Part shown: in pieces, positions 8,433 to 28,175 of the stretch
Position numbering within the stretch: the stretch's first letter is position 1
How the letters are laid out: each line of letters begins with the position of its first letter
Source of the DNA: a virus
Lineage: Duplodnaviria; Heunggongvirae; Uroviricota; Caudoviricetes
Virus record (IMG/VR): IMGVR_UViG_2585427969_000016
Length of the DNA: 36,412 bases
Strand: one strand, 5' to 3'
Program-made: the position numbers and the translations under genes
Notes under the pieces: generated by a model
Told to the model about the DNA's origin: nothing
Databases searched by the model: none
What the model saw: the letters and a program-made list of their open reading frames with translations, nothing else

Positions 8433-8443
8433 GAGGTGTTGGT

Positions 8444-9007: not shown

Positions 9008-9501
9008 TTTACCATCCAGCATATGATGCATATCATTGTTTATTCAGAATGATTGCTCTTATAGACCATGTAAATGAAATTGAGGTAGATAAGGCCAGGA
9101 TTTTGGACTTCTATCTGCTATTTCCTGCTTTGGTATCTGAAATTAGAATGCCTCATAATTATTCTTCAATGAAGAAAGAAGCGAAGAAGTATTCTAATAT
9201 ATATCGGGATCCTATTAATGTTAGATCTACATTCAGAGATATGTATGAAATTCAAATGGCAGCAATAAGATGTCTTGCAGCTACTGGGTTGGTTGAGATG
9301 GATTGTCTTGAGAAAAACATTATAAAGAGAACAGATAAGTCTGTTCCAGATGGCTTATTACTTTCTATTAATAATTTTATTAATACGAATAAAATTATTA
9401 ATACATTTATCATAGATACACTATCTAAATTCCATTTGGTTGGAAAAGATGGTTTAAAAGATAGAACGAAGTTAATGGAGTTTAGATATGACTATTCTTA
9501 A
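9001..9501 (+). CDS. Cargo gene 3: small helical protein, candidate middle component
   Basis: AGGTGG Shine-Dalgarno; 7-nt overlap with gene 2 and 14-nt overlap with gene 4 (translational coupling). Confidence 0.6.
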   Translation: MLIYHPAYDAYHCLFRMIALIDHVNEIEVDKARILDFYLLFPALVSEIRMPHNYSSMKKEAKKYSNIYRDPINVRSTFRDMYEIQMAAIRCLAATGLVEMDCLEKNIIKRTDKSVPDGLLLSINNFINTNKIINTFIIDTLSKFHLVGKDGLKDRTKLMEFRYDYS

Positions 9502-12781: not shown

Positions 12782-14553
12782 CAGTAAAACTCCAGAATGG
12801 TGGATGTCAGCGGGGTGCTGATACCGGCGGTGAGTGGCTCATTTAACAGGGCGTGCATGGTCGCCCAGGCGAGGTCGGCGTGGCTGGCTTCCTCGCTGCG
12901 GTTGGCCTCATAGGTGGCACTGCGTCCGCTGCTGGTCATGGTCTTGCGGATAGCCATAAACGAGCTGGTGATGTCGGTGGCGCTGACGTCATATTCCAGA
13001 CAGCCACGACGGATAACGTCTTTTGCCTTGAGCACCATTGCGGTTTTCATTTCCGGCGTGTAGCGGATATCGCGCGCGGCGGGATAGAACGAGCGAACGA
13101 GCTGGAACACGCCGACACCGAGGCCGGTGGCATCAATTCCGATGTATTCGACGTTGTATTTTTCGGTGAGTTTGCGGATGGATTCAGCCTGAGTGGCAAA
13201 GTCCATGCCTTTCCACTGGTGACGCTCAAGGATCCTGAATTTGCCACCGGCCACCACCGGCGGTGCCAGTACCACGCATCCGGAGCTGTCGCCACGGTGT
13301 GACGGGTCGTAACCAATCCATACCGGGCGGGAGCCGAACGGATTCGCGGCAAACGGCGCATAGTCTTCCCATTCTTCCAGCGTGTCGACCATGCAGCGTT
13401 GCAGCTCCTCGAACGGGAACACCGATGCCTTGTCGTCAACAAATTCACACATGAACAGGTTTTTAAAATCGTCGGCGCTGTTTTCACGTTTGAGCTGCTC
13501 AATGTCGAACAGCGTGCAGCCGCCTTTCAGGGCATCCTCAATGGTGACAATCTGCCGCCACTGGCCGTCCGCACAGAGAAGACCTCCGGCAAGGGCGTTA
13601 TGACTGACGTCGATTTCCACGCGTTCGGCGGCGCTGGCGCGTCCCCGGTTGAACAGTTCACCCGACCAGAACGGGTAGGCGTCGTGCGCCAGCGTGGACG
13701 GGGTGGAGAAATAGGTCGAGCGCAGGTGACTCTGTGAGGCCATACCTGATGCCACCTTACGCAGTACCTGAAAATTCGGGATCCAGAAAATCTCGTCGAC
13801 GTACAGGTCGCCGTTATGGCTCTGTGCGGTGTTGGAGTTGGTGCCGAGAAAAATCAGTTTTGCGCCGTTATTGCCCAGGACAATCGGGTCACCGGTCAGG
13901 TCAACGTCAACCAGCCGGGCAAAGGCGATGATGTATTCGCGGAACACATACGCCTGCGTTTTACTGGCCGACAGAAAAATCTGGTTATGACCGGTTTTCA
14001 GGGCGCGCAGCAGCGCCTCGCGGGAAAAATAAAACGTCGCGCCAATCTGGCGGGATTTCAGGATATCGCGGATGCGGTGCTCAAGCCCGGCGCGATACCA
14101 GTGCAACTGATAGTCGAAAGACTGCTCAAAGAAAATCTGCTCCAGCTTTTCGATGGCCTCGTCACTGAAAAAATTCTTTTTCGGTTTGCGACGCCCGCCT
14201 TTGTTGCGGTTAGCGACGTTCGGATTAAGGTCTGCCTCGTTGCCGGTCTGACTGTAACGGTTTACCCGTGCCAGTCGTTCAATCTGGCGTCCCAGCAGGT
14301 CAATTTCCTTGAAGTCACCGCCGGTTTTCTGCGGTTTGATGATGAGCTGGGTCAGCCGCGCTTCCAGACTCATTTCGACACGGCTGATGGGGGCAACGCT
14401 GTCCCAGCCGTCGCGCTGTTTCCAGCTCTGCACCGTCGGGCGTTTCATCTGCAACATGGCGGCAATCTGCGGCACGGAAAACCCCTGCCAGTACAGCAGC
14501 GCCGCCTGACGACGCGGGTCGTGTAAAAGAGTGGTGTCTGTGGTGATGGTCAT
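12781..14553 (-). CDS. P: Terminase large (ATPase) subunit P; start taken at the MTITTD ATG
   Basis: About 590 aa; order Q-P divergent from O as in P2. Confidence 0.92.
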   Translation of the reverse strand: MTITTDTTLLHDPRRQAALLYWQGFSVPQIAAMLQMKRPTVQSWKQRDGWDSVAPISRVEMSLEARLTQLIIKPQKTGGDFKEIDLLGRQIERLARVNRYSQTGNEADLNPNVANRNKGGRRKPKKNFFSDEAIEKLEQIFFEQSFDYQLHWYRAGLEHRIRDILKSRQIGATFYFSREALLRALKTGHNQIFLSASKTQAYVFREYIIAFARLVDVDLTGDPIVLGNNGAKLIFLGTNSNTAQSHNGDLYVDEIFWIPNFQVLRKVASGMASQSHLRSTYFSTPSTLAHDAYPFWSGELFNRGRASAAERVEIDVSHNALAGGLLCADGQWRQIVTIEDALKGGCTLFDIEQLKRENSADDFKNLFMCEFVDDKASVFPFEELQRCMVDTLEEWEDYAPFAANPFGSRPVWIGYDPSHRGDSSGCVVLAPPVVAGGKFRILERHQWKGMDFATQAESIRKLTEKYNVEYIGIDATGLGVGVFQLVRSFYPAARDIRYTPEMKTAMVLKAKDVIRRGCLEYDVSATDITSSFMAIRKTMTSSGRSATYEANRSEEASHADLAWATMHALLNEPLTAGISTPLTSTILEFY

Positions 14554-14619
14554 GAATACCTCGCCGTGATGAATACACGGCAAGGCTACTGAGTCGCGCC
14601 CCGCGATTCGCTAAGGTGC

Positions 14620-14629
14620 TGTTGTGTCA
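14620..14629. promoter_or_regulatory. TGTTGTGTCA motif in the divergent P/O intergenic region; candidate Ogr-dependent late-promoter element
   Basis: Same 10-mer class recurs upstream of V (21688..21697) and FI (28083..28092). Confidence 0.35.
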
Positions 14630-14726
14630 GTGATAAGCCATCCGGGACTGATGGCGGAGGATGCGCATCGTCGGGAAACTGATGCCGACATGTGACTCCT
14701 CTAATCACTATTCAGGACTCCTGACA

Positions 14727-15581
14727 ATGGCAAAAAAAGTCTCAAAATTCTTTCGTATCGGCGTTGAGGGTGACACCTGTGACGGGCGTGTCATCAGTGC
14801 GCAGGATATTCAGGAAATGGCCGAAACCTTTGACCCGCGTGTCTATGGTTGCCGCATTAACCTGGAACATCTGCGCGGCATCCTGCCTGACGGTATTTTT
14901 AAGCGTTATGGCGATGTGGCCGAACTGAAGGCGGAAAAGATTGACGACGATTCGGCGCTGAAAGGCAAATGGGCGCTGTTTGCGAAAATCACCCCGACCG
15001 ATGACCTTATCGCGATGAACAAGGCCGCGCAGAAAGTCTACACCTCAATGGAAATTCAGCCGAACTTTGCCAATACCGGCAAATGTTATCTGGTGGGGCT
15101 GGCCGTCACCGATGACCCGGCAAGCCTCGGCACGGAATACCTGGAATTCTGCCGCACGGCAAAACACAACCCCCTGAACCGCTTCAAATTAAGCCCTGAA
15201 AACCTGATTTCAGTGGCAACGCCTGTTGAGCTGGAATTTGAAGACCTGCCTGAAACCGTGTTCACCGCCCTGACCGAAAAGGTGAAATCCATTTTTGGCC
15301 GCAAACAGGCCAGCGATGACGCCCGTCTGAATGACGTGCATGAAGCGGTGACCGCTGTTGCTGAACATGTGCAGGAAAAACTGAGCGCCACTGAGCAGCG
15401 CCTCTCTGAGATGGAAACCGCCTTTTCCGCACTTAAGCAGGAGGTGACTGACAGGGCGGATGAAACCAGCCAGGCATTCACCCGCCTGAAAAACAGTCTC
15501 GACCACACCGAAAGTCTGACCCAGCAGCGCCGCAGCAAGGCCACCGGTGGTGGCGGTGACGCCCTGATGACGAACTGCTGA
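14727..15581 (+). CDS. O: Capsid scaffolding protein O (284 aa from the MAKKVSK start)
   Basis: Synteny and length as P2 gpO. Confidence 0.9.
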   Translation: MAKKVSKFFRIGVEGDTCDGRVISAQDIQEMAETFDPRVYGCRINLEHLRGILPDGIFKRYGDVAELKAEKIDDDSALKGKWALFAKITPTDDLIAMNKAAQKVYTSMEIQPNFANTGKCYLVGLAVTDDPASLGTEYLEFCRTAKHNPLNRFKLSPENLISVATPVELEFEDLPETVFTALTEKVKSIFGRKQASDDARLNDVHEAVTAVAEHVQEKLSATEQRLSEMETAFSALKQEVTDRADETSQAFTRLKNSLDHTESLTQQRRSKATGGGGDALMTNC

Positions 15582-15639
15582 CCGGCGTCAGTCAGTCCGG
15601 GAAAACCTTCACGATTAACCCTTAATTTCAGGAAAAACT

Positions 15640-16713
15640 ATGCGCCAGGAAACCCGCTTTAAATTTAATGCTTACCTGTCCCGTGTTGCCGAACTGAACG
15701 GCATCGACGCCGGTGATGTGTCGAAAAAATTCACCGTTGAACCGTCGGTCACCCAGACCCTGATGAACACCATGCAGGAGTCCTCTGACTTTCTGACCCG
15801 CATCAATATTGTGCCGGTCAGCGAAATGAAAGGGGAAAAAATTGGCATCGGTGTCACCGGCTCCATCGCCAGCACCACCGACACCGCCGGTGGCACCGAG
15901 CGTCAGCCGAAGGACTTCTCGAAGCTGGCGTCTAACAAGTACGAATGCGACCAGATTAACTTCGATTTTTATATCCGCTACAAAACGCTGGACCTGTGGG
16001 CGCGTTATCAGGATTTCCAGCTCCGTGTCCGTAACGCCATTATCAAACGCCAGTCCCTTGATTTCATCATGGCCGGTTTTAACGGCGTGAAGCGTGCAGA
16101 AACCTCTGACCGCAGCAGCAATCCGATGCTGCAGGATGTGGCGGTCGGCTGGCTGCAGAAATACCGCAATGAAGCCCCGGCGCGCGTGATGAGCAAGGTC
16201 ACTGACGAGGAAGGCCGCACCACCTCTGAGGTTATCCGCGTGGGCAAGGGCGGTGATTATGCCAGCCTCGATGCACTGGTGATGGATGCGACCAACAACC
16301 TGATTGAACCGTGGTATCAGGAAGACCCTGACCTTGTGGTGATTGTGGGGCGTCAGCTACTGGCGGACAAGTATTTCCCCATCGTCAACAAGGAGCAGGA
16401 CAACAGCGAAATGCTGGCCGCTGACGTCATCATCAGCCAGAAACGCATCGGTAACCTGCCGGCGGTACGCGTCCCGTACTTCCCGGCGGATGCGATGCTC
16501 ATCACGAAGCTGGAAAACCTGTCCATCTACTACATGGATGACAGCCATCGCCGCGTGATTGTGGAAAACCCGAAACTCGACCGCGTGGAGAACTACGAGT
16601 CAATGAACATTGATTACGTGGTGGAAGACTACGCCGCCGGTTGTCTGGTGGAAAAAATCAAGGTCGGTGACTTCTCCACACCGGCTAAAGCGACCGCAGA
16701 GCCGGGAGCGTAA
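15640..16713 (+). CDS. N: Major capsid protein N (357 aa)
   Basis: 357 aa as P2 gpN; synteny. Confidence 0.93.
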   Translation: MRQETRFKFNAYLSRVAELNGIDAGDVSKKFTVEPSVTQTLMNTMQESSDFLTRINIVPVSEMKGEKIGIGVTGSIASTTDTAGGTERQPKDFSKLASNKYECDQINFDFYIRYKTLDLWARYQDFQLRVRNAIIKRQSLDFIMAGFNGVKRAETSDRSSNPMLQDVAVGWLQKYRNEAPARVMSKVTDEEGRTTSEVIRVGKGGDYASLDALVMDATNNLIEPWYQEDPDLVVIVGRQLLADKYFPIVNKEQDNSEMLAADVIISQKRIGNLPAVRVPYFPADAMLITKLENLSIYYMDDSHRRVIVENPKLDRVENYESMNIDYVVEDYAAGCLVEKIKVGDFSTPAKATAEPGA

Positions 16714-16716
16714 CCG

Positions 16717-17454
16717 ATGACGAGTCCCGCACAGCGCCACATGATGCGGGTCTCGGCAGCGATGACCGCGCAGCGGGAAGCCGCCCCGCTGCGACATGCA
16801 ACTGTCTATGAGCAGATGCTGGTTAAGCTCGCCGCAGACCAGCGCACACTGAAAGCGATTTATTCAAAAGAGCTGAAGGCCGCGAAAAAGCGCGAACTGC
16901 TGCCGTTCTGGTTGCCGTGGGTGAACGGCGTGCTGGAGCAGGGCAAAGGCGCACAGGATGACATTCTGATGACGGTCATGCTGTGGCGTCTGGATACCGG
17001 CGATATTGCCGGTGCGCTGGAGATTGCCCGTTATGCCCTGAAGTACGGTCTGACCATGCCGGGTAAACACCGCCGTACCCCGCCGTACATGTTCACCGAG
17101 GAGGTGGCGCTTGCGGCCATGCGCGCTCACGCTGCCGGTGAATCCGTGGATACCCGCCTGCTGACGGAGACCCTTGAACTGACCGCCACGGCTGACATGC
17201 CTGATGAAGTGCGCGCAAAGCTGCACAAAATCACCGGTCTGTTTCTGCGTGACGCTGGTGATGCCGCCGGTGCGCTGGCGCACCTGCAACGTGCGACACA
17301 GCTCGACTGTCAGGCAGGCGTCAAAAAAGAGATTGAACGACTGGAGCGGGAGCTGAAACCGAAGCCGGAGCCAAAAGCGGCCACCCGCGCCCCGCGTAAG
17401 ACCCGGAGCGTGACACCGGCAAAACGTGGACGCCCGAAAAAGAAAGCCAGTTAA
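16717..17454 (+). CDS. M: Terminase small (endonuclease) subunit M
   Basis: Synteny; basic K/R-rich C-terminus. Confidence 0.88.
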   Translation: MTSPAQRHMMRVSAAMTAQREAAPLRHATVYEQMLVKLAADQRTLKAIYSKELKAAKKRELLPFWLPWVNGVLEQGKGAQDDILMTVMLWRLDTGDIAGALEIARYALKYGLTMPGKHRRTPPYMFTEEVALAAMRAHAAGESVDTRLLTETLELTATADMPDEVRAKLHKITGLFLRDAGDAAGALAHLQRATQLDCQAGVKKEIERLERELKPKPEPKAATRAPRKTRSVTPAKRGRPKKKAS

Positions 17455-17553
17455 CAACCGAATGCGCCCCGCGCCAGGGCGGCACGCCGGTCAGTGAGGG
17501 TGAATCACCTGACACTGCACCGGCGTCCACCGCCCGACTTTTCAGAGGTAGTC

Positions 17554-18063
17554 ATGATGACGCTGATTATTCCGCGAAAGGAGGCTCCTGTATCCGGTGA
17601 GGGTACGGTGGTCATCCCGCAACCGGCAGGCGACGAGCCGGTGATTAAAAACACGTTCTTTTTTCCCGATATCGACCCGAAGCGCGTCCGGGAACGTATG
17701 CGCCTTGAGCAGACCGTCGCCCACGCCCGTCTGCGTGAGGCCATCAAGTCAGGCATGGCGGAAACAAATGCGGAGCTGTACGAGTACCGCGAACAGAAAA
17801 TTGCCGCCGGTTTTACGCGTCTGGCGGACGTTCCGGCGGACGACATCGACGGTGAAAGTATCAAAGTTTTTTACTACGAGCGCGCCGTGTGTGCGATGGC
17901 GACCGCGTCGCTTTATGAGCGTTATCGCGGCGTGGATGCCAGTGCGAAAGGAGACAAGAAGGCCGACAGCATTGACAGCACCATTGATGAACTGTGGCGG
18001 GATATGCGCTGGGCGGTGGCGCGTATCCAGGACAAGCCGCGCTGCATCGTGAGTCAAATCTGA
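17554..18063 (+). CDS. L: Head completion protein L (169 aa from the MMTLIIP start)
   Basis: Synteny and length as P2 gpL. Confidence 0.88.
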   Translation: MMTLIIPRKEAPVSGEGTVVIPQPAGDEPVIKNTFFFPDIDPKRVRERMRLEQTVAHARLREAIKSGMAETNAELYEYREQKIAAGFTRLADVPADDIDGESIKVFYYERAVCAMATASLYERYRGVDASAKGDKKADSIDSTIDELWRDMRWAVARIQDKPRCIVSQI

Positions 18064-18266
18064 TGAAGACCTTTGCGCTACAGGGCGACACGCTCGACGC
18101 CATTTGTGTCCGCTATTACGGGCGCACTGAGGGCGTGGTCGAGGCCGTGCTCGCCGCAAATCCGGGACTGGCTGAACTGGGCGCGGTGCTGCCACACGGC
18201 ACCGCCGTCGAACTGCCCGACGTTCAGACCGCGCCCGTGGCTGAAACTGTCAATCTGTGGGAGTAA
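18063..18266 (+). CDS. X: Tail protein X (67 aa, LysM-like)
   Basis: ATGA start/stop overlap with L; 67 aa as P2 gpX. Confidence 0.85.
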   Translation: MKTFALQGDTLDAICVRYYGRTEGVVEAVLAANPGLAELGAVLPHGTAVELPDVQTAPVAETVNLWE

Positions 18267-18269
18267 CGC

Positions 18270-18551
18270 ATGACAGCAGAAGAAAAAAGCGTCCTGTCGC
18301 TTTTCATGATTGGGGTGCTGATTGTTGTCGGCAAGGTGCTTGCCGGTGGTGAACCCATCACCCCGCGTCTGTTTATCGGGCGCATGTTGCTCGGTGGTTT
18401 TGTCTCGATGGTTGCCGGTGTTGTTCTGGTGCAGTTTCCTGACCTGTCACTGCCTGCGGTGTGCGGCATCGGCTCCATGCTGGGTATCGCCGGTTATCAG
18501 GTGATTGAGATTGCCATTCAGCGCCGCTTTAAAGGCAGGGGGAAACAGTAA
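18270..18551 (+). CDS. Y: Holin Y (93 aa)
   Basis: Several hydrophobic helices; immediately upstream of the endolysin. Confidence 0.88.
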   Translation: MTAEEKSVLSLFMIGVLIVVGKVLAGGEPITPRLFIGRMLLGGFVSMVAGVVLVQFPDLSLPAVCGIGSMLGIAGYQVIEIAIQRRFKGRGKQ

Positions 18552-19048
18552 TGCCGGTAATTAACACGCACCAGAATATCGCCGCCTTTCTCGACATGCT
18601 GGCCGTGTCCGAAGGGACGGCGAACCATCCGCTGACGAAAAACCGGGGCTATGACGTGATAGTCACCGGACTGGACGGGAAGCCGGAAATTTTCACCGAC
18701 TACAGTGACCACCCGTTCGCACATGGCCGACCGGCGAAGGTGTTTAACCGTCGCGGTGAAAAATCCACGGCCTCCGGTCGCTATCAGCAGCTTTACCTGT
18801 TCTGGCCGCATTACCGCAAACAGCTTGCCCTGCCGGATTTCAGTCCGTTGTCACAGGACAGACTTGCCATTCAGTTGATCCGCGAACGCGGTGCACTGGA
18901 TGACATCCGGGCGGGACGCATTGAGCGCGCCATTTCACGCTGTCGCAATATCTGGGCGTCCCTGCCGGGTGCCGGTTACGGTCAGCGTGAGCATTCACTG
19001 GAAAAACTGGTCGCCGTCTGGCGTACCGCCGGCGGCGTACCGGCTTAA
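18551..19048 (+). CDS. K: Endolysin K (lysozyme-like, 165 aa)
   Basis: 165 aa as P2 gpK; follows the holin. Confidence 0.9.
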   Translation: MPVINTHQNIAAFLDMLAVSEGTANHPLTKNRGYDVIVTGLDGKPEIFTDYSDHPFAHGRPAKVFNRRGEKSTASGRYQQLYLFWPHYRKQLALPDFSPLSQDRLAIQLIRERGALDDIRAGRIERAISRCRNIWASLPGAGYGQREHSLEKLVAVWRTAGGVPA

Positions 19049-19062
19049 ACGGAGTAAACACC

Positions 19063-19488
19063 ATGAAGAAATTATCCCTTTCACAGATGCTGAACGTGTC
19101 GCTGGCGCTGATGCTGGCACTGTCCCTGATTTACCCGCAGAGCGTGGCCGTCAATTTTGTCGCCGCCTGGGCGATTCTGGCGACGGTTATCTGTGTGGTT
19201 GCCGGTGGTGTCGGGGTGTATGCCACTGAGTATGTGCTGGAACGCTACGGGCTGGAGCTGCCGCCGGAATCGCTGGCCGTGAAGATTGTCACGTCGCTGT
19301 TTTTGCAGCCGGTGCCGTGGCGCAGACGGGCGGCGGCTCTGGTGGTGATGGTGGCGACGTTTATCGCGCTGGTCGCTGCCGGGTGGATTTTTACCGCGCT
19401 GATTTATCTTGTGGCGTCGGTGTTCTTCCGGCTGATACGTACGGCCTGCCGTCAGCGTTTTGAGGGGCGGGAGCCATGTCAAAGCTGA
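19063..19488 (+). CDS. lysA: Lysis accessory membrane protein LysA (141 aa)
   Basis: Multiple TM segments; P2 lysis cassette order. Confidence 0.8.
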   Translation: MKKLSLSQMLNVSLALMLALSLIYPQSVAVNFVAAWAILATVICVVAGGVGVYATEYVLERYGLELPPESLAVKIVTSLFLQPVPWRRRAAALVVMVATFIALVAAGWIFTALIYLVASVFFRLIRTACRQRFEGREPCQS

Positions 19489-19901
19489 TGATTGTGCTGG
19501 TTGTGTTGTTATCACTGGCGGTGCCGGGGCTGTTTCTGGTGAAGCATGAAAATGCCAGCCTGCGCACCTCACTGGACAGGGCGAACAGCGTCGCCAGCGG
19601 GCAGCAGACGACCATCACCATGCTGAAAAATCAGCTTCATGTTGCACTCACCAGGGCAGACAAAAACGAGCTGGCGCAGGTGGCACTGCGTCAGGAACTG
19701 GAGAACGCCGCGAAGCGTGAAGCACTGCGCGAGAAAACCATCACGAGGTTACTTAATGAAAACGAGGATTTCCGCCGCTGGTATGGCGCTGATCTGCCTG
19801 ATGCTGTGCGCCGGTTGCACCAGCGTCCGGCCTGCACTGACGCCAGTGATTGTCGCCAACGCCTGCCCGAAAGTGAGCCTTTGCCCGATGCCGGGCAGTG
19901 A
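19476..19901 (+). CDS. lysB: LysB, Rz-like inner-membrane spanin (141 aa)
   Basis: N-terminal TM helix followed by charged helical region. Confidence 0.8.
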   Translation: MSKLMIVLVVLLSLAVPGLFLVKHENASLRTSLDRANSVASGQQTTITMLKNQLHVALTRADKNELAQVALRQELENAAKREALREKTITRLLNENEDFRRWYGADLPDAVRRLHQRPACTDASDCRQRLPESEPLPDAGQ

Positions 19902-20046
19902 CCCGCAGAAGAACGGCGATTTAAGTGCCGATATCCGGCAGCTTGAGAACGCGCTGGCACGCTGTGCCAGCCAGGTAAAAATGATTAAACACTGTCAGGA
20001 CGAAAACGATGCTCAAACCCGACAGCCTGCGCAGGGCGCTGACTGA
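19756..20046 (+). CDS. lysC: LysC, Rz1-like outer-membrane lipoprotein spanin, embedded in the +1 frame of lysB and overlapping the R start
   Basis: Internal ATG with GAGG Shine-Dalgarno; signal peptide with cysteine (MALICLMLCAGC); Pro-rich mature part; 96 aa. Confidence 0.65.
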   Translation: MKTRISAAGMALICLMLCAGCTSVRPALTPVIVANACPKVSLCPMPGSDPQKNGDLSADIRQLENALARCASQVKMIKHCQDENDAQTRQPAQGAD

Positions 20047-20476
20047 TGCCGTCACGGTGCTGAAAACTAACCCCGATATGCTGCGGATATTCGTGGATAA
20101 CGGGAGTATTGCCTCCACACTGGCGACGTCGCTGTCATTCGAAAAGCGTTACACGCTCAATGTCATTGTGACCGACTTTACCGGTGATTTTGACCTGCTC
20201 ATCGTGCCGGTGCTGGCGTGGCTGCGGGAAAATCAGCCCGACATCATGACCACCGACGAAGGCCAGAAAAAGGGCTTCACGTTTTATGCGGACATCAACA
20301 ATGACAGCAGCTTTGATATCAGCATCAGCCTGATGCTGACCGAGCGCACGCTGGTCAGTGAGGTGGAAGGCGCGCTGCATGTGAAGAATATCCCTGAACC
20401 TCCGCCGCCGGAGCCGGTTACCCGCCCGATGGAGCTGTATATCAATGGCGAACTGGTGAGCAAGTGGGATGAATGA
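20009..20476 (+). CDS. R: Tail completion protein R (155 aa)
   Basis: Synteny and length as P2 gpR. Confidence 0.88.
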   Translation: MLKPDSLRRALTDAVTVLKTNPDMLRIFVDNGSIASTLATSLSFEKRYTLNVIVTDFTGDFDLLIVPVLAWLRENQPDIMTTDEGQKKGFTFYADINNDSSFDISISLMLTERTLVSEVEGALHVKNIPEPPPPEPVTRPMELYINGELVSKWDE

Positions 20477-20927
20477 GTTTAAGCGTTTTGAAGACCGGCT
20501 GACCGGACTTATTGAATCGCTGTCACCGTCAGGGCGTCGGCGACTGGCGATAGATATTGCGAAGAAACTGCGCCAGCGCCAGCAGCAGCGAATTAAATTA
20601 CAAAAAGGCCCGGATGGTACGCCGTATGTACCGAGAAAAAAACAGCCAGTGCGAAATAAGAAAGGGCGGATAAAGCGGGAAATGTTTGCGAAATTACGCA
20701 CAAACCGATTTATGAAAGCAACAGGTAGCGAGAGTGCGGCTGTGGTGGAGTTTGCCAGCGGAGTACAACGAATTGCGAGAGTACATCAATTAGGGCTTAG
20801 GGATAAGCCGGGGCGTAATAGTGCTGTGGTGGAATATCCTGTTCGTGAGTTATTAGGTTTTGACAAGGAATCTATACAATTGATAGAAAAGGAGTTATTA
20901 GTGATTCTATCGAAAGATGTTATATGA
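20469..20927 (+). CDS. S: Tail completion protein S; its last codons run into the AT-rich cargo island
   Basis: Synteny and length as P2 gpS. Confidence 0.85.
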   Translation: MNEFKRFEDRLTGLIESLSPSGRRRLAIDIAKKLRQRQQQRIKLQKGPDGTPYVPRKKQPVRNKKGRIKREMFAKLRTNRFMKATGSESAAVVEFASGVQRIARVHQLGLRDKPGRNSAVVEYPVRELLGFDKESIQLIEKELLVILSKDVI

Positions 20928-21445
20928 GATGGGTGTTTGTGGATAAAAAGTTTTCCATTTTGAGAAAAAGAGTAAAGCATTCTCAAAAGAAAGTTATGGA
21001 TTGTATTATTGCTGACCATAATGCTGATGTATGTGTGTTATGCGGGAGTTCTGACGATATTACTCGTGAGCACATTATTCCTCAGTGGGCCTTTGAGTCA
21101 AATGCTGAAAAACTTTTAATTAATAAAAAGAATAATCAGTCAACTCATTACATCAAAGCCACTGTACCAGCATGCAGAGTGTGCAATTCTGATTTGCTGG
21201 GAGCGTTTGAGTATAACCTGAAGAAATTTCTTACGGAAAAGAGGGGCGATGAGTTAACAGATTATGAATATGATTGCATCATATGGTGGTTGCAATACAT
21301 GGGCTTTAAGTTGCAATTAATGGATTTACGGACCCGCTTTCTCAGGTATAAAGGGGGGATTATATCCCTTTCCTTGCAAACTTCCCGGTTGCAATGTTTT
21401 GGGGGAATGTCGATACGACACCGGAGGATGTCTCCAGGATTATAA
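20924..21445 (+). CDS. Cargo HNH-family endonuclease (P2 orf30 position); probably frame-disrupted at a G6 run (21353..21358)
   Basis: HNH motif CVLCG..TREHIIPQW..CRVCN; ATGA overlap with the S stop; AT-rich; ORF tail after the G-run looks non-native. Confidence 0.65.
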   Translation: MRWVFVDKKFSILRKRVKHSQKKVMDCIIADHNADVCVLCGSSDDITREHIIPQWAFESNAEKLLINKKNNQSTHYIKATVPACRVCNSDLLGAFEYNLKKFLTEKRGDELTDYEYDCIIWWLQYMGFKLQLMDLRTRFLRYKGGIISLSLQTSRLQCFGGMSIRHRRMSPGL

Positions 21446-21678
21446 GAAAATCGCGACGCAATCTGATGTCGAAATGGAAGGATAAAAAACATAATTCTCT
21501 GATGGTTTTTGAAACATCAAACAAGAGTTTTCATTTCTTTCATAAGGTTGATGAATTTATTTTTATTGAAATGCCTCAGGTTAAGAAGGCGTTTTTCTTC
21601 TTTTTTAATAAAGAATTTGACAGCCATGATTTAGCTCATGAGGAGTGTATGAAGATTATAGAGAAGTGCTACAACTAA
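21394..21678 (+). CDS. Small ORF in the next frame; probably the displaced C-terminal part of the HNH gene
   Basis: Open frame begins right after the G6 run at 21352 and continues to 21678. Confidence 0.4.
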   Translation: MFWGNVDTTPEDVSRIIRKSRRNLMSKWKDKKHNSLMVFETSNKSFHFFHKVDEFIFIEMPQVKKAFFFFFNKEFDSHDLAHEECMKIIEKCYN

Positions 21679-21687
21679 TATTTATTA

Positions 21688-21705
21688 TGTTGTGTCACGG
21701 CTGAC
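21688..21705. promoter_or_regulatory. TGTTGTGTCA motif plus dyad TGTCA-CGGC-TGACA upstream of V; candidate late promoter P_V element
   Basis: Motif shared with the P/O and FI upstream regions; sits at the AT-rich to GC-rich boundary. Confidence 0.35.
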
Positions 21706-21755
21706 AGAGTCCTCCATGATTGCTGCTGGTATCGTCCGGCGGCATCCTTCCCGTC

Positions 21756-22391
21756 ATGAACACTCTCGCAAATATTCAGGAACTCGCGCGCGCACTGCGC
21801 AACATGATTCGTACCGGCCTTGTCGTCGAAACAGACCTTAACGCCGGCCGCTGCCGTGTGCAGACCGGCGGCATGTGCACTGACTGGCTTCAGTGGCTGA
21901 CCCATCGTGCCGGTCGTTCGCGCACATGGTGGGCACCTTCCGTGGGGGAGCAGGTGCTGATTCTGTCCGTGGGCGGTGAACTCGACACGGCGTTCGTTCT
22001 GCCGGGGATTTATTCCGGCGATAACCCCGCGCCGTCTGCGTCGGCGGATGCCCTGCATATCCGTTTCCCTGACGGGGCGGTGATTGAATATGAACCCGAA
22101 ACCAGTGCACTCACGGTAAGCGGAATTAAAACGGCCAGCGTGACGGCTTCTGATTCTGTTACTGCCACGGTGCCGGTGGTCATGGTGAAAGCATCAACCC
22201 GCGTCACCCTGGACACACCGGAGGTGGTCTGCACCAACAGGCTGATTACCGGCACGCTGGAAGTGCAGAAGGGCGGGACGATGCGCGGCAACATTGAACA
22301 CACCGGCGGTGAACTCTCATCAAACGGGAAGGTACTGCATACCCATAAACACCCCGGCGACAGCGGCGGCACAACCGGGGGACCTCTATGA
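21756..22391 (+). CDS. V: Baseplate spike protein V (211 aa from the MNTLANIQ start)
   Basis: Synteny and length as P2 gpV. Confidence 0.9.
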   Translation: MNTLANIQELARALRNMIRTGLVVETDLNAGRCRVQTGGMCTDWLQWLTHRAGRSRTWWAPSVGEQVLILSVGGELDTAFVLPGIYSGDNPAPSASADALHIRFPDGAVIEYEPETSALTVSGIKTASVTASDSVTATVPVVMVKASTRVTLDTPEVVCTNRLITGTLEVQKGGTMRGNIEHTGGELSSNGKVLHTHKHPGDSGGTTGGPL

Positions 22392-22735
22392 CAGCGCGTT
22401 ATCTCGGAATGAATCGCAGTGATGGCCTGACTGTCACTGACCTTGAGCATATCAGCCAGAGTATCGGCGATATCCTGCGCACGCCGGTCGGCTCACGGGT
22501 GATGCGTCGTGATTACGGCTCGTTGCTGGCGTCAATGATTGACCAGCCGCAGACCCCGGCGCTTGAGTTGCAGATTAAGGTCGCCTGTTACATGGCGGTG
22601 CTGAAATGGGAACCCCGCGTCACCCTGTCATCTGTCACCACGGCGCGCAGTTTTGACGGGCGAATGACGGTCACGTTAACCGGCCAGCACAACGACACCG
22701 GCCAGCCACTTTCGTTAACCATCCCTGTGAGTTGA
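22388..22735 (+). CDS. W: Baseplate wedge protein W (115 aa)
   Basis: Synteny and length. Confidence 0.9.
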   Translation: MTARYLGMNRSDGLTVTDLEHISQSIGDILRTPVGSRVMRRDYGSLLASMIDQPQTPALELQIKVACYMAVLKWEPRVTLSSVTTARSFDGRMTVTLTGQHNDTGQPLSLTIPVS

Positions 22736-22739
22736 AACC

Positions 22740-23648
22740 ATGCCGATTATCGACCTGAACCAGCTACCCGCACCGGATGTGGTCGAGGAGCTGGACTTTG
22801 AAACCATTCTTGCCGAACGCAAGGCGACACTGATTTCCCTTTACCCGGAAGACCAGCAGGAGGCGGTCGCCCGTACCCTGACGCTGGAATCCGAACCTCT
22901 CGTCAAACTGCTGGAGGAAAATGCTTATCGTGAGCTTATCTGGCGTCAGCGTGTGAATGAGGCCGCACGGGCGGTGATGCTGGCCTGTGCTGCCGGTAAT
23001 GACCTTGATGTGATTGGTGCCAATTACAACACCACGCGCCTGATTATCACCCCAGCAGATGATTCGACTATCCCGCCGACACCGGCAGTGATGGAATCTG
23101 ACACTGATTATCGTCTGCGTATTCAGCAGGCGTTTGAAGGTTTAAGCGTCGCCGGGTCGGTGGGGGCCTATCAGTATCATGGTCGAAGTGCCGACGGGCG
23201 TGTCGCAGATATCTCTGTCACCAGTCCTTCTCCGGCCTGCGTCACCATCTCTGTGCTGTCACGTGAAAATAACGGTGTGGCATCCGAAGACCTGCTGGCC
23301 ATGGTACGTAACGCCCTGAATGGCGAGGACGTCAGACCGGTGGCCGACCGCGTGACCGTACAGTCTGCCGCCATCGTTGAATACCAGATAAACGCCACGC
23401 TTTACCTTTACCCTGGTCCCGAAAGCGAACCCATCCGCGCTGCCGCCGTGAAAAAACTGGAAGCGTACATCACGGCACAGCACCGGCTGGGGCGCGACAT
23501 CCGTCTGTCTGCCATTTATGCCGCTTTGCATGTGGAAGGCGTGCAGCGTGTCGAGCTGGCCGAACCACTGGCCGACATTGTGCTCAACAGTACGCAGGCG
23601 TCTTTCTGTACCGAATACCGCGTCGTGACCGGAGGCTCGGATGAGTGA
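22740..23648 (+). CDS. J: Baseplate protein J (302 aa)
   Basis: Synteny and length. Confidence 0.92.
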   Translation: MPIIDLNQLPAPDVVEELDFETILAERKATLISLYPEDQQEAVARTLTLESEPLVKLLEENAYRELIWRQRVNEAARAVMLACAAGNDLDVIGANYNTTRLIITPADDSTIPPTPAVMESDTDYRLRIQQAFEGLSVAGSVGAYQYHGRSADGRVADISVTSPSPACVTISVLSRENNGVASEDLLAMVRNALNGEDVRPVADRVTVQSAAIVEYQINATLYLYPGPESEPIRAAAVKKLEAYITAQHRLGRDIRLSAIYAALHVEGVQRVELAEPLADIVLNSTQASFCTEYRVVTGGSDE

Positions 23649-24171
23649 TTCGCGCCTGCTGCCGACCGGCTCATCACCGCTTGAAGTTGCCGCCGCAAAA
23701 GCCTGTGCGGAAATTGAAAAAACGCCGGTCAGGATTCGTGAACTGTGGAACCCGGATACCTGTCCGGCAAATCTGCTGCCGTGGCTGGCGTGGGCGTTTT
23801 CGGTCGACAGGTGGGATGAAAAGTGGCCGGAAGCGACAAAACGCGCCGTTATCCGCGATGCCTATTTCATCCACTGTCATAAGGGCACTATCGGTGCAAT
23901 CCGGCGTGTGGTGGAGCCGCTCGGCTATCTCATCAACGTGACGGAGTGGTGGGAAAACAGTGACCCGCCAGGCACCTTCCGGCTTGATATTGGTGTACTG
24001 GAAAGCGGCATCACAGAGGCAATGTATCAGGAAATGGAACGGCTGATTGCTGATGCCAAACCTGCAAGCCGCCACCTTATCGGCCTGAACATTACCCGGG
24101 ACATTCCCGGCTATCTGTTCGCCGGTGGTGTGGCTTACGACGGCGATGTAATTACGGTTTACCCCGGATAA
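23641..24171 (+). CDS. I: Baseplate protein I (176 aa)
   Basis: Synteny and length. Confidence 0.9.
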   Translation: MSDSRLLPTGSSPLEVAAAKACAEIEKTPVRIRELWNPDTCPANLLPWLAWAFSVDRWDEKWPEATKRAVIRDAYFIHCHKGTIGAIRRVVEPLGYLINVTEWWENSDPPGTFRLDIGVLESGITEAMYQEMERLIADAKPASRHLIGLNITRDIPGYLFAGGVAYDGDVITVYPG

Positions 24172-24181
24172 GTGAGGAATA

Positions 24182-26500
24182 ATGAGCACAAAATTCAGAA
24201 CCGTTATCACCACTGCCGGTGCAGCAAAGCTGGCAGCGGCAACCGCGCCGGGAGGGCGGAAGGTCAACATTACCACGATGGCCGTAGGGGATGGCGGTGG
24301 TAAATTGCCTGTCCCGGATGCCGGACAGACCGGACTTATTCACGAAGTCTGGCGACATACGCTGAACAAAATCAGCCAGGACAAACGAAACAGTAATTAT
24401 ATTATCGCAGAGCTGGTTATTCCGCCGGAGGTGGGCGGTTTCTGGATGCGTGAGCTTGGCCTGTACGATGATGCGGGAACGTTAATTGCCGTGGCGAACA
24501 TGGCCGAAAGTTATAAGCCAGCTCTTGCCGAAGGCTCAGGGCGTTCGCAGACCTGTCGCATGGTCATCATCGTCAGCAGTGTGGCCTCAGTGGCGCTGAC
24601 CATTGACACCACAACGGTGATGGCGACGCAGGATTACGTTGATGACAAAATTGCAGAGCATGAACAGTCACGACGTCACCCGGACGCCTCGCTGACCGCA
24701 AAAGGTTTTACTCAGTTAAGCAATGCGACCAACAGCACGTCTGAAACACTGGCCGCAACGCCGAAAGCGGTTAAGGCCGCATATGACCTGGCTAACGGGA
24801 AATACACTGCGCAGGATGCCACCACAGCGCGAAAAGGCCTTGTCCAGCTCAGTAGCGCCACCAACAGCACGTCTGAAACGCTCGCCGCAACACCAAAAGC
24901 GGTAAAGGCAGCATATGACCTTGCTAACGGGAAATACACTGCACAGGACGCCACCACAGCGCGAAAAGGTCTTGTCCAGCTCAGTAGCGCCACCAACAGC
25001 GATTCTGAAACGCTTGCCGCAACGCCAAAGGCGGTTAAGACAGCGTATGACCTTGCTAACGGGAAATACACTGCACAGGATGCCACCACAGCGCGAAAAG
25101 GTCTTGTCCAGCTCAGTAGCGCCACCAACAGTGATTCTGAAACGCTTGCCGCAACACCAAAAGCGGTGAAGTCTGCCTATGACAATGCTGAAAAACGTCT
25201 TCAGAAAGATCAGAACGGTGCGGATATTCCGGGAAAGGATACCTTCACGAAAAATATCGGTGCCTGTCGTGCTTATAGCGGCGCTTTGAGCACTGAAGCC
25301 GGAAACTGGACAACCGCTCAGTTTATTGAATGGCTGGATTCCCGTGGTGCATTTAATCATCCGTACTGGATGTGCAAAGGCTCCTGGTCATATGCAAATA
25401 ACAAAATCATTACGGATACCGGATGTGGTGATATCAACCTGGCTGGTTGTGTCGTCGAGGTCATGGGAACAAAATCTGCAATCACTATCCGAGTGACCAC
25501 GCCGACAACATCAAGCGGTGGCGGTACAACCAGCGCGCAATTCACTTACATTAATCATGGGGACGGCTACTCCCCCGGCTGGCGTCGTGACTGGAATCGT
25601 CAGGGCGACTCAATGACCGGAACGATTAATCAGGATGGCGGAAGCCAGAATGCCTATATGTCTACGGCCTTATGTTCAGGCACCAGAGGCGGCAAAAAAT
25701 ATCTCAGAAAGTTTCGTGGTGGAGAAGGAGATACTATCTGGCATGAAACAGTACAGGGCGAGGTAATTCGCTGGGCGACAGGTAATACTGATGCTCGGGA
25801 AGAATTATCACTCAGCTCTGTTTATGGTCTTCGTTCAAGAGGTGAAATTACATCGCTCAGTGCTAATGGTCTGCGCGTTGCTTATGGCAATTATGGATTC
25901 TTTATCAGGAATGATGGCGGCAGCACATATTTAATGCTGACGGCCTCTGGCGATAAATTTGGGACATGGAACGGCTTAAGACCGCTGACTATCAATAACG
26001 CCAATGGCGGAGTGTCAATGGGGCATGGCCTGAGTGTTACAGGTGATATTGTCTCAAGTACCAAAGTACGTGCCGGTAGCGGGAAAAAGTTCACGGTCAG
26101 CAGCAGCAATACATCCACGAAGGAAGCCGCATTCAATTTGTGGGGAAACTCAAGTCGTCCTGTGGTGGCTGAATTAGGTGATGATGCAGGCTGGCATTTT
26201 TACAGTCAGAGAAATACAGATAACAGCATCACTTTTGCTGTTAACGGTCAGGTATCACCATCTAACTATGGCAACTTTGATTCACGCTATGTCCGGGATA
26301 TCCGGCTTGGTGGTGCTGCCACATACAAACCTGCGAACAATGGCATGACATGGACACATCAGGCACCGTCCGGGTGTGTATATTCTGGCATTATTGTTCA
26401 GGATACCGGCTCAAACTCTGCCGATAACATTGGTGGCGTATATTACAGACCGGTGCAGAAATACATTAACGGGACATGGTATAACGTGGCACAGGTATAA
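24182..26500 (+). CDS. H: Tail fibre protein H (772 aa) with conserved N-terminus, four internal 44-aa repeats and a variable C-terminal receptor-binding part
   Basis: N-terminus MSTKFRTVITTAGAAKLAAATAPG as recalled for P2 gpH; about 100 aa longer than P2 H. Confidence 0.92.
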   Translation: MSTKFRTVITTAGAAKLAAATAPGGRKVNITTMAVGDGGGKLPVPDAGQTGLIHEVWRHTLNKISQDKRNSNYIIAELVIPPEVGGFWMRELGLYDDAGTLIAVANMAESYKPALAEGSGRSQTCRMVIIVSSVASVALTIDTTTVMATQDYVDDKIAEHEQSRRHPDASLTAKGFTQLSNATNSTSETLAATPKAVKAAYDLANGKYTAQDATTARKGLVQLSSATNSTSETLAATPKAVKAAYDLANGKYTAQDATTARKGLVQLSSATNSDSETLAATPKAVKTAYDLANGKYTAQDATTARKGLVQLSSATNSDSETLAATPKAVKSAYDNAEKRLQKDQNGADIPGKDTFTKNIGACRAYSGALSTEAGNWTTAQFIEWLDSRGAFNHPYWMCKGSWSYANNKIITDTGCGDINLAGCVVEVMGTKSAITIRVTTPTTSSGGGTTSAQFTYINHGDGYSPGWRRDWNRQGDSMTGTINQDGGSQNAYMSTALCSGTRGGKKYLRKFRGGEGDTIWHETVQGEVIRWATGNTDAREELSLSSVYGLRSRGEITSLSANGLRVAYGNYGFFIRNDGGSTYLMLTASGDKFGTWNGLRPLTINNANGGVSMGHGLSVTGDIVSSTKVRAGSGKKFTVSSSNTSTKEAAFNLWGNSSRPVVAELGDDAGWHFYSQRNTDNSITFAVNGQVSPSNYGNFDSRYVRDIRLGGAATYKPANNGMTWTHQAPSGCVYSGIIVQDTGSNSADNIGGVYYRPVQKYINGTWYNVAQV
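24701..25228 (+). repeat. Four tandem 132-bp (44-codon) repeats inside H, each encoding ..KGLVQLSSATNS(T/D)SETLAATPKAVKAAYDLANGKYTAQDATTAR
   Basis: Period of 132 nt read directly from the sequence, with a few synonymous and missense differences between copies. Confidence 0.9.
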
Positions 26501-26503
26501 TTT

Positions 26504-27031
26504 ATGCAGCATTTGATAAATATAACCGCGGGTAATCCAAAAACGGTTGAACAATATCAATTGACAAAGGACTTTGATGTTGTCTGGTTTTTTACAGAAG
26601 ATGGTAAGAACTGGTACGAAGAACAAAAGTATTTTGCTGATGACACGATAAAAATAGCGTACGACAAGGATAATATTATCCGCTATATGGAAAAAGATGT
26701 GACAGCTATCAGACCAGATGGATTAAGTGTGGTTGAAGTGGCGGATATTACTGCTAACCGACGGGCGGACATTTCAGGGAACTGGATGTTTAAGGACGGC
26801 AAAGTGATTAAACGCATTTATACGGCAGAGGAATTGCAGCAGCAGGCAGAAAACCGGAAAGCCAGACTTCTTGCAGATGCTGAATCCGTGATTTTGCCGC
26901 TGGAGCGCGCGGTCAGACTGAACATGGCAACAGATGAGGAGCGTAGCCGACTGGATGCATGGGAGCGTTACAGCGTTCTGGTCAGTCGTGTGGATCCTGC
27001 AAATCCTGAATGGCCGGAAATGCCGCAATAA
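26504..27031 (+). CDS. G: Tail fibre assembly chaperone G (175 aa)
   Basis: Synteny and length as P2 gpG. Confidence 0.9.
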
Positions 27032-27252
27032 GTTGTATGATCTCTGGAGTGAGCAAACGTATCTATGGCACAGAGTAAAGCCTAATCTGACAGGCCGCTC
27101 TGTGTCTGGAGTAGATTTTAGTAAAGCATTATTTTATTAGTGCAAATTCTAATCAATACATTTTATGTATATGATATCCTGCAGACTTTAATGACTTGGT
27201 TTAGGCTAACCAGATAACACTGAAGGAATATTTTTGATAATTAAGGTGCGGT

Positions 27253-27846
27253 ATGTTTACTAAGCGACGATTAAAAAATATTAACTGGGAGGCAAGTTCA
27301 GTGATTCTTGCTATGGTTCTCTTTGTTGGAAATATATTTTATACAAATCATCGTGATGATATAAGCATGGAGGCTGAGAGGGACAGTATCAGAACAATGT
27401 TTGCATATGAAATCGCTAATAACCATCGCGCTCTCACTTTTCTTGATAAAACGAGACATATTGGCTTTGACGAAAATTCGGAGCATTTTGTTGGCGAGCC
27501 TTTTGCCATTAATGTCAAATCATTAGGGGGGCCTCGCTTACAGATTGCATTAAACCAGACTGATAAAGTGTTTAAATCCTACTTCAGCGAATTAAGTAAG
27601 CTTGATAAAGAGGATGTTACTCTTCTTATGGACTATTACCATGAGCAAAGCATCCTGCTGGAGCGTGTAAAATCTACGTTACAGAAGATGAAAAGTGGTA
27701 ATGATATTAAAGTTGATATTGATGGTTACTTATTAGAAGAACACTTCATGAATGAGCTTAATCTTTCTAATATTTTGCTTAAACGCTATAGCCATTTGTT
27801 GTCACAACACGCTAAAGAACATAAAACAAAAGATTTACATAATTGA
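27253..27846 (+). CDS. Cargo gene at the P2 Z/fun position: 197-aa protein with one N-terminal TM helix and a helical cytoplasmic domain; function unknown
   Basis: AAGGTG Shine-Dalgarno; hydrophobic SSVILAMVLFVGNIFY; AT-rich island between G and FI. Confidence 0.65.
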   Translation: MFTKRRLKNINWEASSVILAMVLFVGNIFYTNHRDDISMEAERDSIRTMFAYEIANNHRALTFLDKTRHIGFDENSEHFVGEPFAINVKSLGGPRLQIALNQTDKVFKSYFSELSKLDKEDVTLLMDYYHEQSILLERVKSTLQKMKSGNDIKVDIDGYLLEEHFMNELNLSNILLKRYSHLLSQHAKEHKTKDLHN

Positions 27847-28047
27847 TAATCTGCTAATGGTTATTCATGGGGTAACTATGTTTTATATGTAATCCAACTC
27901 AGATGAATTATTGATTCTGGATAATAACCGCAGAACGGCATATACCCTGACAGGCAAATGTCCGCTTCTTGTTCAAAGCAGACTGTCAGATTTGACAGAA
28001 TTTTGGTTACGTAATTTGTCAGTTGGAAACAGAGAGAGTACAAATCA

Positions 28048-28080
28048 AGGCAGGCAAGCTGATTGCCTGCCTTTTCTTTA
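28048..28080 (+). terminator. Rho-independent terminator-like hairpin (AAGGCAGGCAA-GCTGA-TTGCCTGCCTT followed by TTCTTTA)
   Basis: 11-bp GC-rich stem with T-rich tail, read from sequence. Confidence 0.55.
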
Positions 28081-28082
28081 TC

Positions 28083-28092
28083 TGTTGTTTCA
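28083..28092. promoter_or_regulatory. TGTTGTTTCA motif about 90 bp upstream of FI; candidate late promoter P_F element
   Basis: Third occurrence of the TGTTGT(G/T)TCA class, positioned about where a -55 element would lie. Confidence 0.35.
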
Positions 28093-28175
28093 TCCACTGA
28101 CCAGCCAGGTCAAATAGCGTCTCATGCACTGCCCAACAGAAAATAGTTGCACCCATTAACCACGGAGTTAAACGG

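Follow-up and report, generated by a model that had tools for sequence, protein, structure and literature searches.

In phage P2, the slot between genes S and V holds orf30 (NP_046770), an AT-rich, non-essential cargo gene for a protein of 261 amino acids, which lies on the opposite strand behind an annotated O-operon terminator. In Peduovirus R18C (MN016939), the slot is occupied by ORF16, a 741-nt single ORF that was described as a rare moron of unknown function replacing P2 orf30 (PMC6823313). Surveys of P2 defence hotspots have covered the gpA-gpQ, Z/fun and tail-to-CI slots, but not the S-V slot (PMC9122126; bioRxiv 2024.10.15.618418). Here we analyse the R18C gene in a stretch of viral DNA of 36,412 nucleotides (IMG/VR record IMGVR_UViG_2585427969_000016; the whole stretch is called the window below), in which it is interrupted by a frameshift at a run of six guanines. 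The gene itself is thus already catalogued, as R18C ORF16 and as phrog_10503, and its function is unassigned.

The window contains a P2-like prophage whose insertion site lies between yegR and yegQ. Positions 10939-31445 (20.5 kb) are 100% identical to contig JMJE01000008.1 (GCA_000714995.1). JMJE00000000 is the assembly of the Escherichia coli blood isolate JA69_pb, which was produced in 2014 from PacBio RS reads with HGAP2 at 47x coverage and comprises 27 contigs; strain JA69 was also sequenced on Illumina MiSeq (JFFO00000000) (PMC4271156). The prophage of E. coli FDAARGOS_1289 differs from window positions 1060-36412 by two SNPs and exactly one indel, the G-run base, over 35,354 alignment columns, and E. 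coli AGR6137 is identical to the window over 3.8 kb apart from having seven Gs (G7). With G7 restored, no other run of G or C within the prophage would be as long. The sole private variant of the window is a synonymous A at position 24286.

The S-V slot in the window, P2 and R18C

The gene in the window and R18C ORF16 are the same gene in the same slot and share 96.7% nucleotide identity. At the position of the GGGGGG of the window, R18C reads GGTGGTG and therefore has neither the homopolymer nor the frameshift. P2 orf30 resembles the gene in its position between S and V, in its AT-richness and in being non-essential cargo, but the two proteins are unrelated in sequence (BLASTP E-value 0.87) and the gene in the window follows the orientation of S.

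The preliminary description of this DNA, which was made from the sequence alone, had placed an AT-rich insert at the orf30 position of P2. AT-rich cargo is indeed found in the slot (32-43% GC over positions 20850-21750, compared with 55-62% in the flanks), but the replaced module reaches further upstream. In a blastn comparison with P2, homology spans 19554-20693, stops inside S (at approximately codon 75) and resumes at 21755, at the start of V. The AT-rich segment therefore cannot be described as a plain insertion between the two genes. The variable module comprises the C-terminal half of S (the 3' 234 nt), the cargo gene and the stretch that precedes V (Table 1).

The cargo gene is co-oriented with S, its GTG start lies 11 nt past the S stop codon, and no terminator-like site was detected between the two genes. 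This suggests that it would be co-transcribed with the late O operon by read-through. Past the stop codon of the cargo gene, a candidate site starts with ATGTTGT, as does the annotated P2 activator-binding site ATGTTGTCTGGTAGTTCTACAAATGAAT, and its placement ahead of V is also the same. The region before V lacks an exact TGT-N12-ACA late-promoter element.

Table 1. Features of the S-V region of the window (positions in window coordinates).
Feature	Position	Strand	Remarks
Gene S, tail completion / virion morphogenesis (upstream flank)	20469..20927	+	PF05069 Phage_tail_S
AT-rich module, replaced relative to P2	20694..21754	+	blastn against P2; GC profile
ORF1	20924..21445	+	173 aa, or 168 aa from the GTG; last 28 codons out of frame; the 168-aa PGAP product is the same in USMARC-51408
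Whole cargo gene	20939..21678	+	Intact: 246 aa, 741 nt with G7; in the window: 740 nt, frameshifted
HNH-like (HNH_5-type) motif	21032..21187	+	Invariant residues, weak Pfam HNH_5 match, AF2 model
G6 homopolymer	21353..21358	+	Intact allele has G7, codons AAA GGG GGG GAT (K G G D)
C-terminal 106 codons and stop	21358..21678	+	-1 frame; invariant P149, P155, P167, R175, F206 and H207
Mechanically listed ORF2	ATG 21394 start	+	94 aa, within the -1 frame
Possible Ogr/P_V activator site ATGTTGTGTCACGGCTGACAGA	21686..21707	+	Candidate only, from likeness to the P2 site
Gene V, baseplate spike (downstream flank)	21756..22391	+	Annotated relatives; P2 homology

A vertically maintained single-gene cargo of the S-V slot

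From the reading frames, the preliminary description had taken the two ORFs to be apparently one broken gene. It placed the frame break at the G6 run, held the 28 codons by which the first ORF continues to be in an implausible frame, let the next frame open right after the run and extend for 106 codons to 21678, and expected a single protein of about 250 amino acids if one G were added. Our analysis bears out each of these points, including the coordinates. ORF1 leaves its own frame at the G6 run and its final 28 codons match nothing. The -1 frame is open from 21352, just before the run, to a stop codon at 21676-21678, and a stop-free stretch as long as its 106 codons (counted from the GAT at 21358) occurred in four of 20,000 shuffles of the same composition. 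Inserting one G yields a single ORF of 251 amino acids from the ATG at 20924, or of 246 amino acids from the GTG at 20939.

The protein obtained by restoring one G (the fused protein) matches phrog_10503 over its full length (profile positions 1-251 of 251, E-value 1.2e-180). A search of 5.8 billion proteins returned 44 matches, most of them full-length (245-252 amino acids). They are 55-96% identical and come from six genera of Enterobacterales (E. coli, Yersinia, Klebsiella, Enterobacter, Kosakonia and Erwinia), along with one homologue from Bacteroidota at 40% identity. The E. coli members of the phrog_10503 family are 95-96% identical to the fused protein. In an alignment of 30 homologues the peptide KGGDYIPFL, which is encoded across the G run, is conserved, and the invariant C-terminal residues include, among others, those listed in Table 1. 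The annotations of E. coli AGR6137, E. coli FDAARGOS_1289 and phage R18C each give the gene as one CDS of 741 nt, and it fills the S-V slot as a single ORF both in R18C and in P2-like prophages from E. coli, Klebsiella and Kluyvera. The full-length phrog_10503 match, the single-ORF orthologues and the conserved junction support the reading that the two ORFs are halves of one gene, which one extra G would restore.

Within E. coli, dN/dS is 0.20-0.31 before the G run and 0.08-0.12 after it, and both halves are under purifying selection. The gene is a vertically maintained, single-gene cargo of the S-V slot under purifying selection.

The start of the gene had been placed at the ATG overlapping the S stop codon. 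This overlap (ATGA, with the ATG at 20924 and the TGA of S) is present, but the conserved start is a different one. R18C has an ATG where the window has the GTG at 20939, and the orthologues from Klebsiella and from a metagenomic P2-like element start with MDKKF or MHVK, 12-15 nt past the S stop codon. From these equivalent positions, the GTG at 20939 is the conserved start and the intact protein is more likely to have 246 than 251 amino acids; the ATG at 20924 is probably not the start. In practice the case is a caution for annotation: the locus should be given as one CDS of 246 amino acids, neither as two ORFs nor as a pseudogene.

It is also conceivable that the two-ORF arrangement is itself functional, either because the halves are translated separately or because they are joined by programmed -1 ribosomal frameshifting or transcriptional slippage. 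The downstream frame is the -1 frame, and a -1 slip on GGG GGG would produce exactly KGGDYIPFL, but the orthologues are single ORFs with no frameshift. Furthermore, in the frame of ORF1 the site A GGG GGG departs from the canonical X XXY YYZ heptamer, and the folding of the 92 nt after it does not surpass that of shuffled sequences (z = -0.13). As for separate translation, the ATG of the second listed ORF has no visible ribosome-binding site or Shine-Dalgarno-like sequence, and 12 conserved C-terminal codons (21358-21393) lie upstream of it. We therefore consider a functional two-ORF arrangement to be extremely improbable, and treat the locus as one gene below.

Length of the G run in public assemblies and the cause of the split

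The locus is present in 77 of 5426 complete E. coli genomes. Among the 20 complete E. coli genomes in which it has at least 99% identity, 18 have the G7 span (scored as the expected span of 842 nt, and checked directly in three), one has G6 (USMARC-51408, whose haplotype is ~2% diverged) and one has G8 (DETEC-S792). In exact-sequence counts, the intact G7 allele was found in 493 contigs as the 251-aa product and in 244 contigs as the 246-aa product, the G6 allele in 36 (168 aa) and 29 contigs (173 aa), and the G8 allele in six (187 aa) and one (182 aa). The two product lengths per allele are alternative start calls of one allele, and the contig counts may overlap. The in-frame G7 accounts for ~90% of the exact-allele contigs counted. 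Comparing G-run length among related prophages, which had been proposed as a check, thus shows that G6, G7 and G8 all occur, but the distribution of G6 is confined to particular assemblies.

All 36 NCBI index blocks with the 168-aa G6 product have contigs >1 Mb, compared with one of 120 blocks with intact sister alleles (0/72 for P0001, 0/13 for P0005 and 1/35 for P0024; Fisher p = 1e-34); the baseline for contig size here is these sister alleles and not the exact intact allele. Over 20 kb, two of these G6 assemblies show additional gaps, at 7 positions in L015 and at 21 in L017, which sit in homopolymers of all four bases and at GGCACC/GGTGCC sites. None of the G6 Logan contigs reaches 50 kb. 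Seven of them were compared (L008-L014), which come from the SRA runs ERR15941438, ERR15941439, ERR15941327, SRR27186998, SRR27186991, SRR30896549 and ERR10498433. Four of the seven carry extra single-base deletions, mostly in homopolymers; the other three (L008, L013 and L014) have no other indel over 5-10 kb. These three come from run series that include indel-carrying contigs.

Among the assemblies found, the G6 allele therefore tracks sequencing technology, occurring only in long-read or noisy assemblies. Such patterns are what homopolymer under-calling in long reads produces; a polymorphism that segregates in E. coli would not produce them. Orthologues of the kind that had been named as a refutation, with two ORFs and a G6 run, do exist in USMARC-51408 and in some nanopore-like assemblies. 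They refute nothing, because the G6 assemblies with a reference close enough for counting carry further homopolymer indels. USMARC-51408 is ~2% diverged and its error content cannot be judged from such a comparison.

We infer that the split probably stems from a consensus error, with one base missing from a G7 tract. The locus would be one intact gene between S and V, encoding 246 amino acids (251 from the ATG at 20924), and the true sequence would have seven Gs (AAA GGG GGG GAT) where the deposited consensus has six. The window comes from the 2014 PacBio RS/HGAP2 assembly at 47x, a type of assembly whose residual errors typically consist of single bases lost from homopolymers of G or C, and given this origin and this error type the two-ORF appearance would be an assembly artefact. 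The preliminary description had listed sequencing error, pseudogenisation and phase variation without ranking them; of these, our results favour sequencing error and weigh against phase variation.

Three observations count against an error. Across 35 kb of the window there is neither a second indel nor any further sign of a poor consensus, and the assembly is thus not grossly error-ridden there. Three of the G6 Logan contigs are, as noted, free of other indels over 5-10 kb. In addition, the G6 of USMARC-51408 and the G8 of DETEC-S792 could equally be real, recurrent slippage. An alternative would be a genuine and very recent -1 slipped-strand mutation from G7 to G6 in JA69 that inactivated the gene, leaving a product of 168 or 173 amino acids that keeps the HNH-like region and lacks the C-terminal domain. 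A G7 tract is a plausible site of replication slippage, the G6 and G8 alleles lie on at least three haplotypes, and disruptions outside homopolymers also exist: FDAARGOS_1285 has 2 nt inserted, and ES5 and the pig isolates 1504D004 and 1604D011 have 11 nt deleted. The gene is therefore dispensable and does decay. On the other hand, most copies of the related alleles sit on NCBI contigs of the short-read type, from which G6 is absent, and G6 co-occurs with other homopolymer errors. The C-terminal part in the window is also identical to that of the intact allele, so any real mutation would have to be extremely recent. We regard such a mutation as unlikely.

The three tract lengths in public assemblies, with G7 alone in frame, could also be taken as those of an evolved contingency locus, in which tract lengths of G6, G7 and G8, arising by slippage, turn a prophage nuclease on and off (phase variation). 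Cargo and defence genes can be costly, which makes a switch conceivable. However, the G7 tract is limited to the clade at ≥99% identity, and sister clades encode the same two glycine codons with synonymous changes as GGGGGTG, GGTGGTG, GGGAGGG or GGTAGTG. The repeat is therefore not maintained across orthologues, which makes evolved phase variation unlikely. The predominance of the in-frame G7 among exact-allele contigs and the association of the length variants with error-prone assemblies argue in the same direction. A tract of seven Gs is moreover short for a phase-variable tract, and mismatch repair is active in E. coli. Like the poly-G contingency loci of Neisseria, Haemophilus and Campylobacter, the locus has a G homopolymer in a coding region whose length sets the reading frame, but in contrast to those loci the tract is short, is not conserved among orthologues and has variants that track sequencing technology. 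We consider an evolved contingency locus highly improbable. The broader proposal that real G6/G7/G8 switching controls an undescribed single-gene anti-phage or anti-satellite HNH-like effector in the S-V slot is also very unlikely.

With a consensus error as the preferred explanation, the G7 tract would be one that is miscalled repeatedly in long-read E. coli assemblies, which makes it a useful marker of homopolymer error.

The HNH-like protein and its relatives

The preliminary description had reported a clear HNH motif in the protein. Numbered from the ATG, the motif reads C37-x2-C40-G, T47-x-E49-H50-x2-P53-x-W55, N70-N-Q72 and C84-x2-C87-N88. All of these residues are invariant in the 30 orthologues. 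They include the two CxxC pairs (C37, C40, C84 and C87), a putative structural zinc site that is also invariant in 58 remote homologues, and E49, H50, N70 and N88, which would correspond to the acidic residue before the catalytic His, that His, the downstream Asn and the metal ligand borne on the helix of HNH nucleases. In the 58 remote homologues the invariant positions are C, C, E, P, W, C, C and N, and H is conserved in ≥90%. The protein itself scores below the gathering threshold of Pfam HNH_5 (PF14279; 16.5 bits against a threshold of 27.5, E-value 0.0084), with only profile positions 1-21 of 56 aligned.

A profile search of 1.84 billion representative proteins returned 842 relatives at E≤0.001. 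These include full-length proteins of 245-290 amino acids and many proteins of 300-360 amino acids that share positions 28-130. The 58 remote homologues were taken from the latter group, and 42 of them match HNH_5 at E≤0.01; when ten were scanned singly, one exceeded the HNH_5 threshold (P0162, 30.8 bits). An alignment of the remote homologues matches the cargo family with an hhalign probability of 99.6% (E-value 1.4e-23, positions 30-220).

An AF2 model built on the 30-sequence alignment, of good overall confidence (pLDDT 80, pTM 0.83), begins with two N-terminal helices, followed by a strand at 46-50 that contains E49-H50, a poorly modelled loop at 61-73 that contains N70-N71-Q72, a strand at 80-84 and a long helix at 85-105, which begins at C84-x-x-C87-N88. 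More helices come next, and the model ends in a four-stranded sheet and a terminal helix. In the model the protein falls into three parts: an N-terminal HNH-like region of the zinc-ribbon type, a middle part made up of helices and, at the C terminus, a small beta-sheet domain. The whole model had no significant match in PDB or BFVD, and no HNH structure was recovered, and sequence and profile searches of PDB found nothing. Neither the protein nor ten of its relatives had a match in NCBIfam. In PADLOC-DB 2.0 the protein had no significant match (best hit PDC-M01B, E-value 0.021) and the ten relatives had none.

The invariant motif, the HNH_5 matches of 42 of the 58 remote homologues and the hhalign result together indicate that the protein is HNH-like in its motif and in its profile-profile homology, with putative catalysis. 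The motif is thus less clear-cut than had been reported, given the sub-threshold HNH_5 score and the lack of an HNH structure match, but its four cysteines, E-H pair and C-x-x-C-N are invariant and tie it to HNH-like proteins. Scanning the fused protein against HNH and defence profiles, also proposed at the outset, similarly gave a sub-threshold HNH_5 hit and no PADLOC match for the protein itself, while the remote homologues match HNH_5.

All family members with at least 55% identity are in the S-V slot of P2-like elements. Relatives at ~40% identity, from Vibrio, Photobacterium, Shewanella, Halomonas, Psychromonas and others, are not in P2-like contexts, and no conserved partner gene was found beside these non-P2 relatives. 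Their 91 neighbouring ORFs include five integrases and also match models for PDC-S31, PDC-M02, Mrr-type restriction, Mokosh and AbiZ. Such a neighbourhood is weak, guilt-by-association evidence for a role in conflict. The protein may be a metal-dependent nuclease that acts in phage-phage, phage-satellite or phage-host conflict; with the HNH_5 score below threshold, no structure, PADLOC or NCBIfam match and no conserved partner gene, both the nuclease activity and the conflict role are putative.

A homing endonuclease was considered as well, as the replaced module reaches into S. The protein has no match to a DNA-binding or NUMOD-type domain. Between genera the gene diverges about as much as the flanking genes (55-74% compared with 63-79% identity), and a recent invasion is therefore not suggested.

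In common with HNH_5 and other zinc-ribbon HNH/beta-beta-alpha-Me nucleases, the cargo protein has the pattern C-x2-C-G, E-H-[IV]-[IV]-P and C-x2-C-N, and its modelled strand, strand and helix follow in the right order around the motif. It differs from HNH_5 in having ~29 residues inserted between the two strands, where model confidence is low, and in having N rather than H as the last metal ligand. The biological interest of the locus is modest, and lies in a conserved HNH_5-like protein in a slot outside the surveys of defence hotspots. Compared with the P2 exclusion genes old, tin and Z/fun and with the defence cargo of P2/P4 hotspots, the protein differs in having no homology to any PADLOC model, but its gene shares with them the character of AT-rich accessory cargo and a place in a recognised variable slot.

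Homopolymer runs and apparent base-calling errors

An ORF of 197 aa, for which a PADLOC search returned no match, occupies the Z/fun slot, with the genes for tail-fibre assembly and the sheath on either side. Inside this ORF lies the only G6 run in the window other than the one at the apparent split of the HNH-like gene (21353-21358). In two error-rich assemblies, L015 and L017, the run in the Z/fun ORF reads G5 and the gene is called as two ORFs (99 and 92 aa). It is a second site liable to the homopolymer artefact that is probable at 21353-21358. L017 (JBBLUL010000001.1, which maps to window positions 12346-28928) also contains single-base insertions at GGCACC/GGTGCC-type sites, recurring at 13 or more of them within 20 kb. 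These insertions look like a systematic base-calling error, possibly linked to methylation.

At position 24286, in the tail-fibre gene H, the window and the PacBio contig of E. coli JA69_pb (JMJE01000008.1) have an A, whereas all 10 of the other near-identical prophages examined have a C. The difference is synonymous, and the A represents either a SNP found in JA69 alone or another consensus error. Gene H also contains direct repeats with an offset of 132 nt and 88-91% identity, which were recovered as self-hits of the alignment.

Features of the window and, for the 216-aa ORF, of the Klebsiella contigs
Feature	Position	Strand	Location	Match
Four co-oriented ORFs	8241-11425		gpA-gpQ hotspot	
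ATPase, 645 aa	9488-11425		gpA-gpQ hotspot	Lamassu LmuB model
Replaced end of S	20694-20927		Tail gene S	
Direct repeats	24725-25183		Tail-fibre gene H	
ORF, 197 aa	27253-27846		Z/fun slot	
G6 run	27526-27531		197-aa ORF	
Second cargo ORF, 216 aa	5926-6576	minus	L019-L021	

Boundaries of the AT-rich module and of the prophage

The AT-rich replaced module takes in the last ~78 codons of the tail gene S. From about residue 75 onwards, the S protein of the window differs strongly from its P2 counterpart, which places the recombination junction of the module within S, an essential tail gene.

The prophage is located between yegR and yegQ. The window and the FDAARGOS_1289 prophage (L007) differ upstream of window position 1060 (window 1-1059 versus L007 1-180), where a copy of IS1B adjoins yegR in FDAARGOS_1289.

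Contigs with relatives of the HNH-like gene

In the Klebsiella P2-like prophages L019-L021, the HNH-like gene and V are separated by a second cargo ORF, which lies on the opposite strand and had no match in Pfam. Two further contigs, L026 and L027, are labelled 'Sporobacter termitidis MAG' and 'Chryseobacterium sp. 18061'. Their P2-like tail and lysis genes have 55-82% protein identity to the E. coli window, which suggests mis-binned or contaminating enterobacterial DNA. One remote homologue, P0197 (595 aa), is a fusion of an HNH_5-like N-terminal region with a cysteine protease domain of OTU-like type (E = 1e-08).

The gpA-gpQ hotspot

The gpA-gpQ (old/tin) hotspot of the prophage is occupied by four ORFs, two of which are named 'ABC-three component system' in RefSeq. 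The ATPase encoded in this hotspot matched the LmuB models of Lamassu with an E-value of 4.5e-47.
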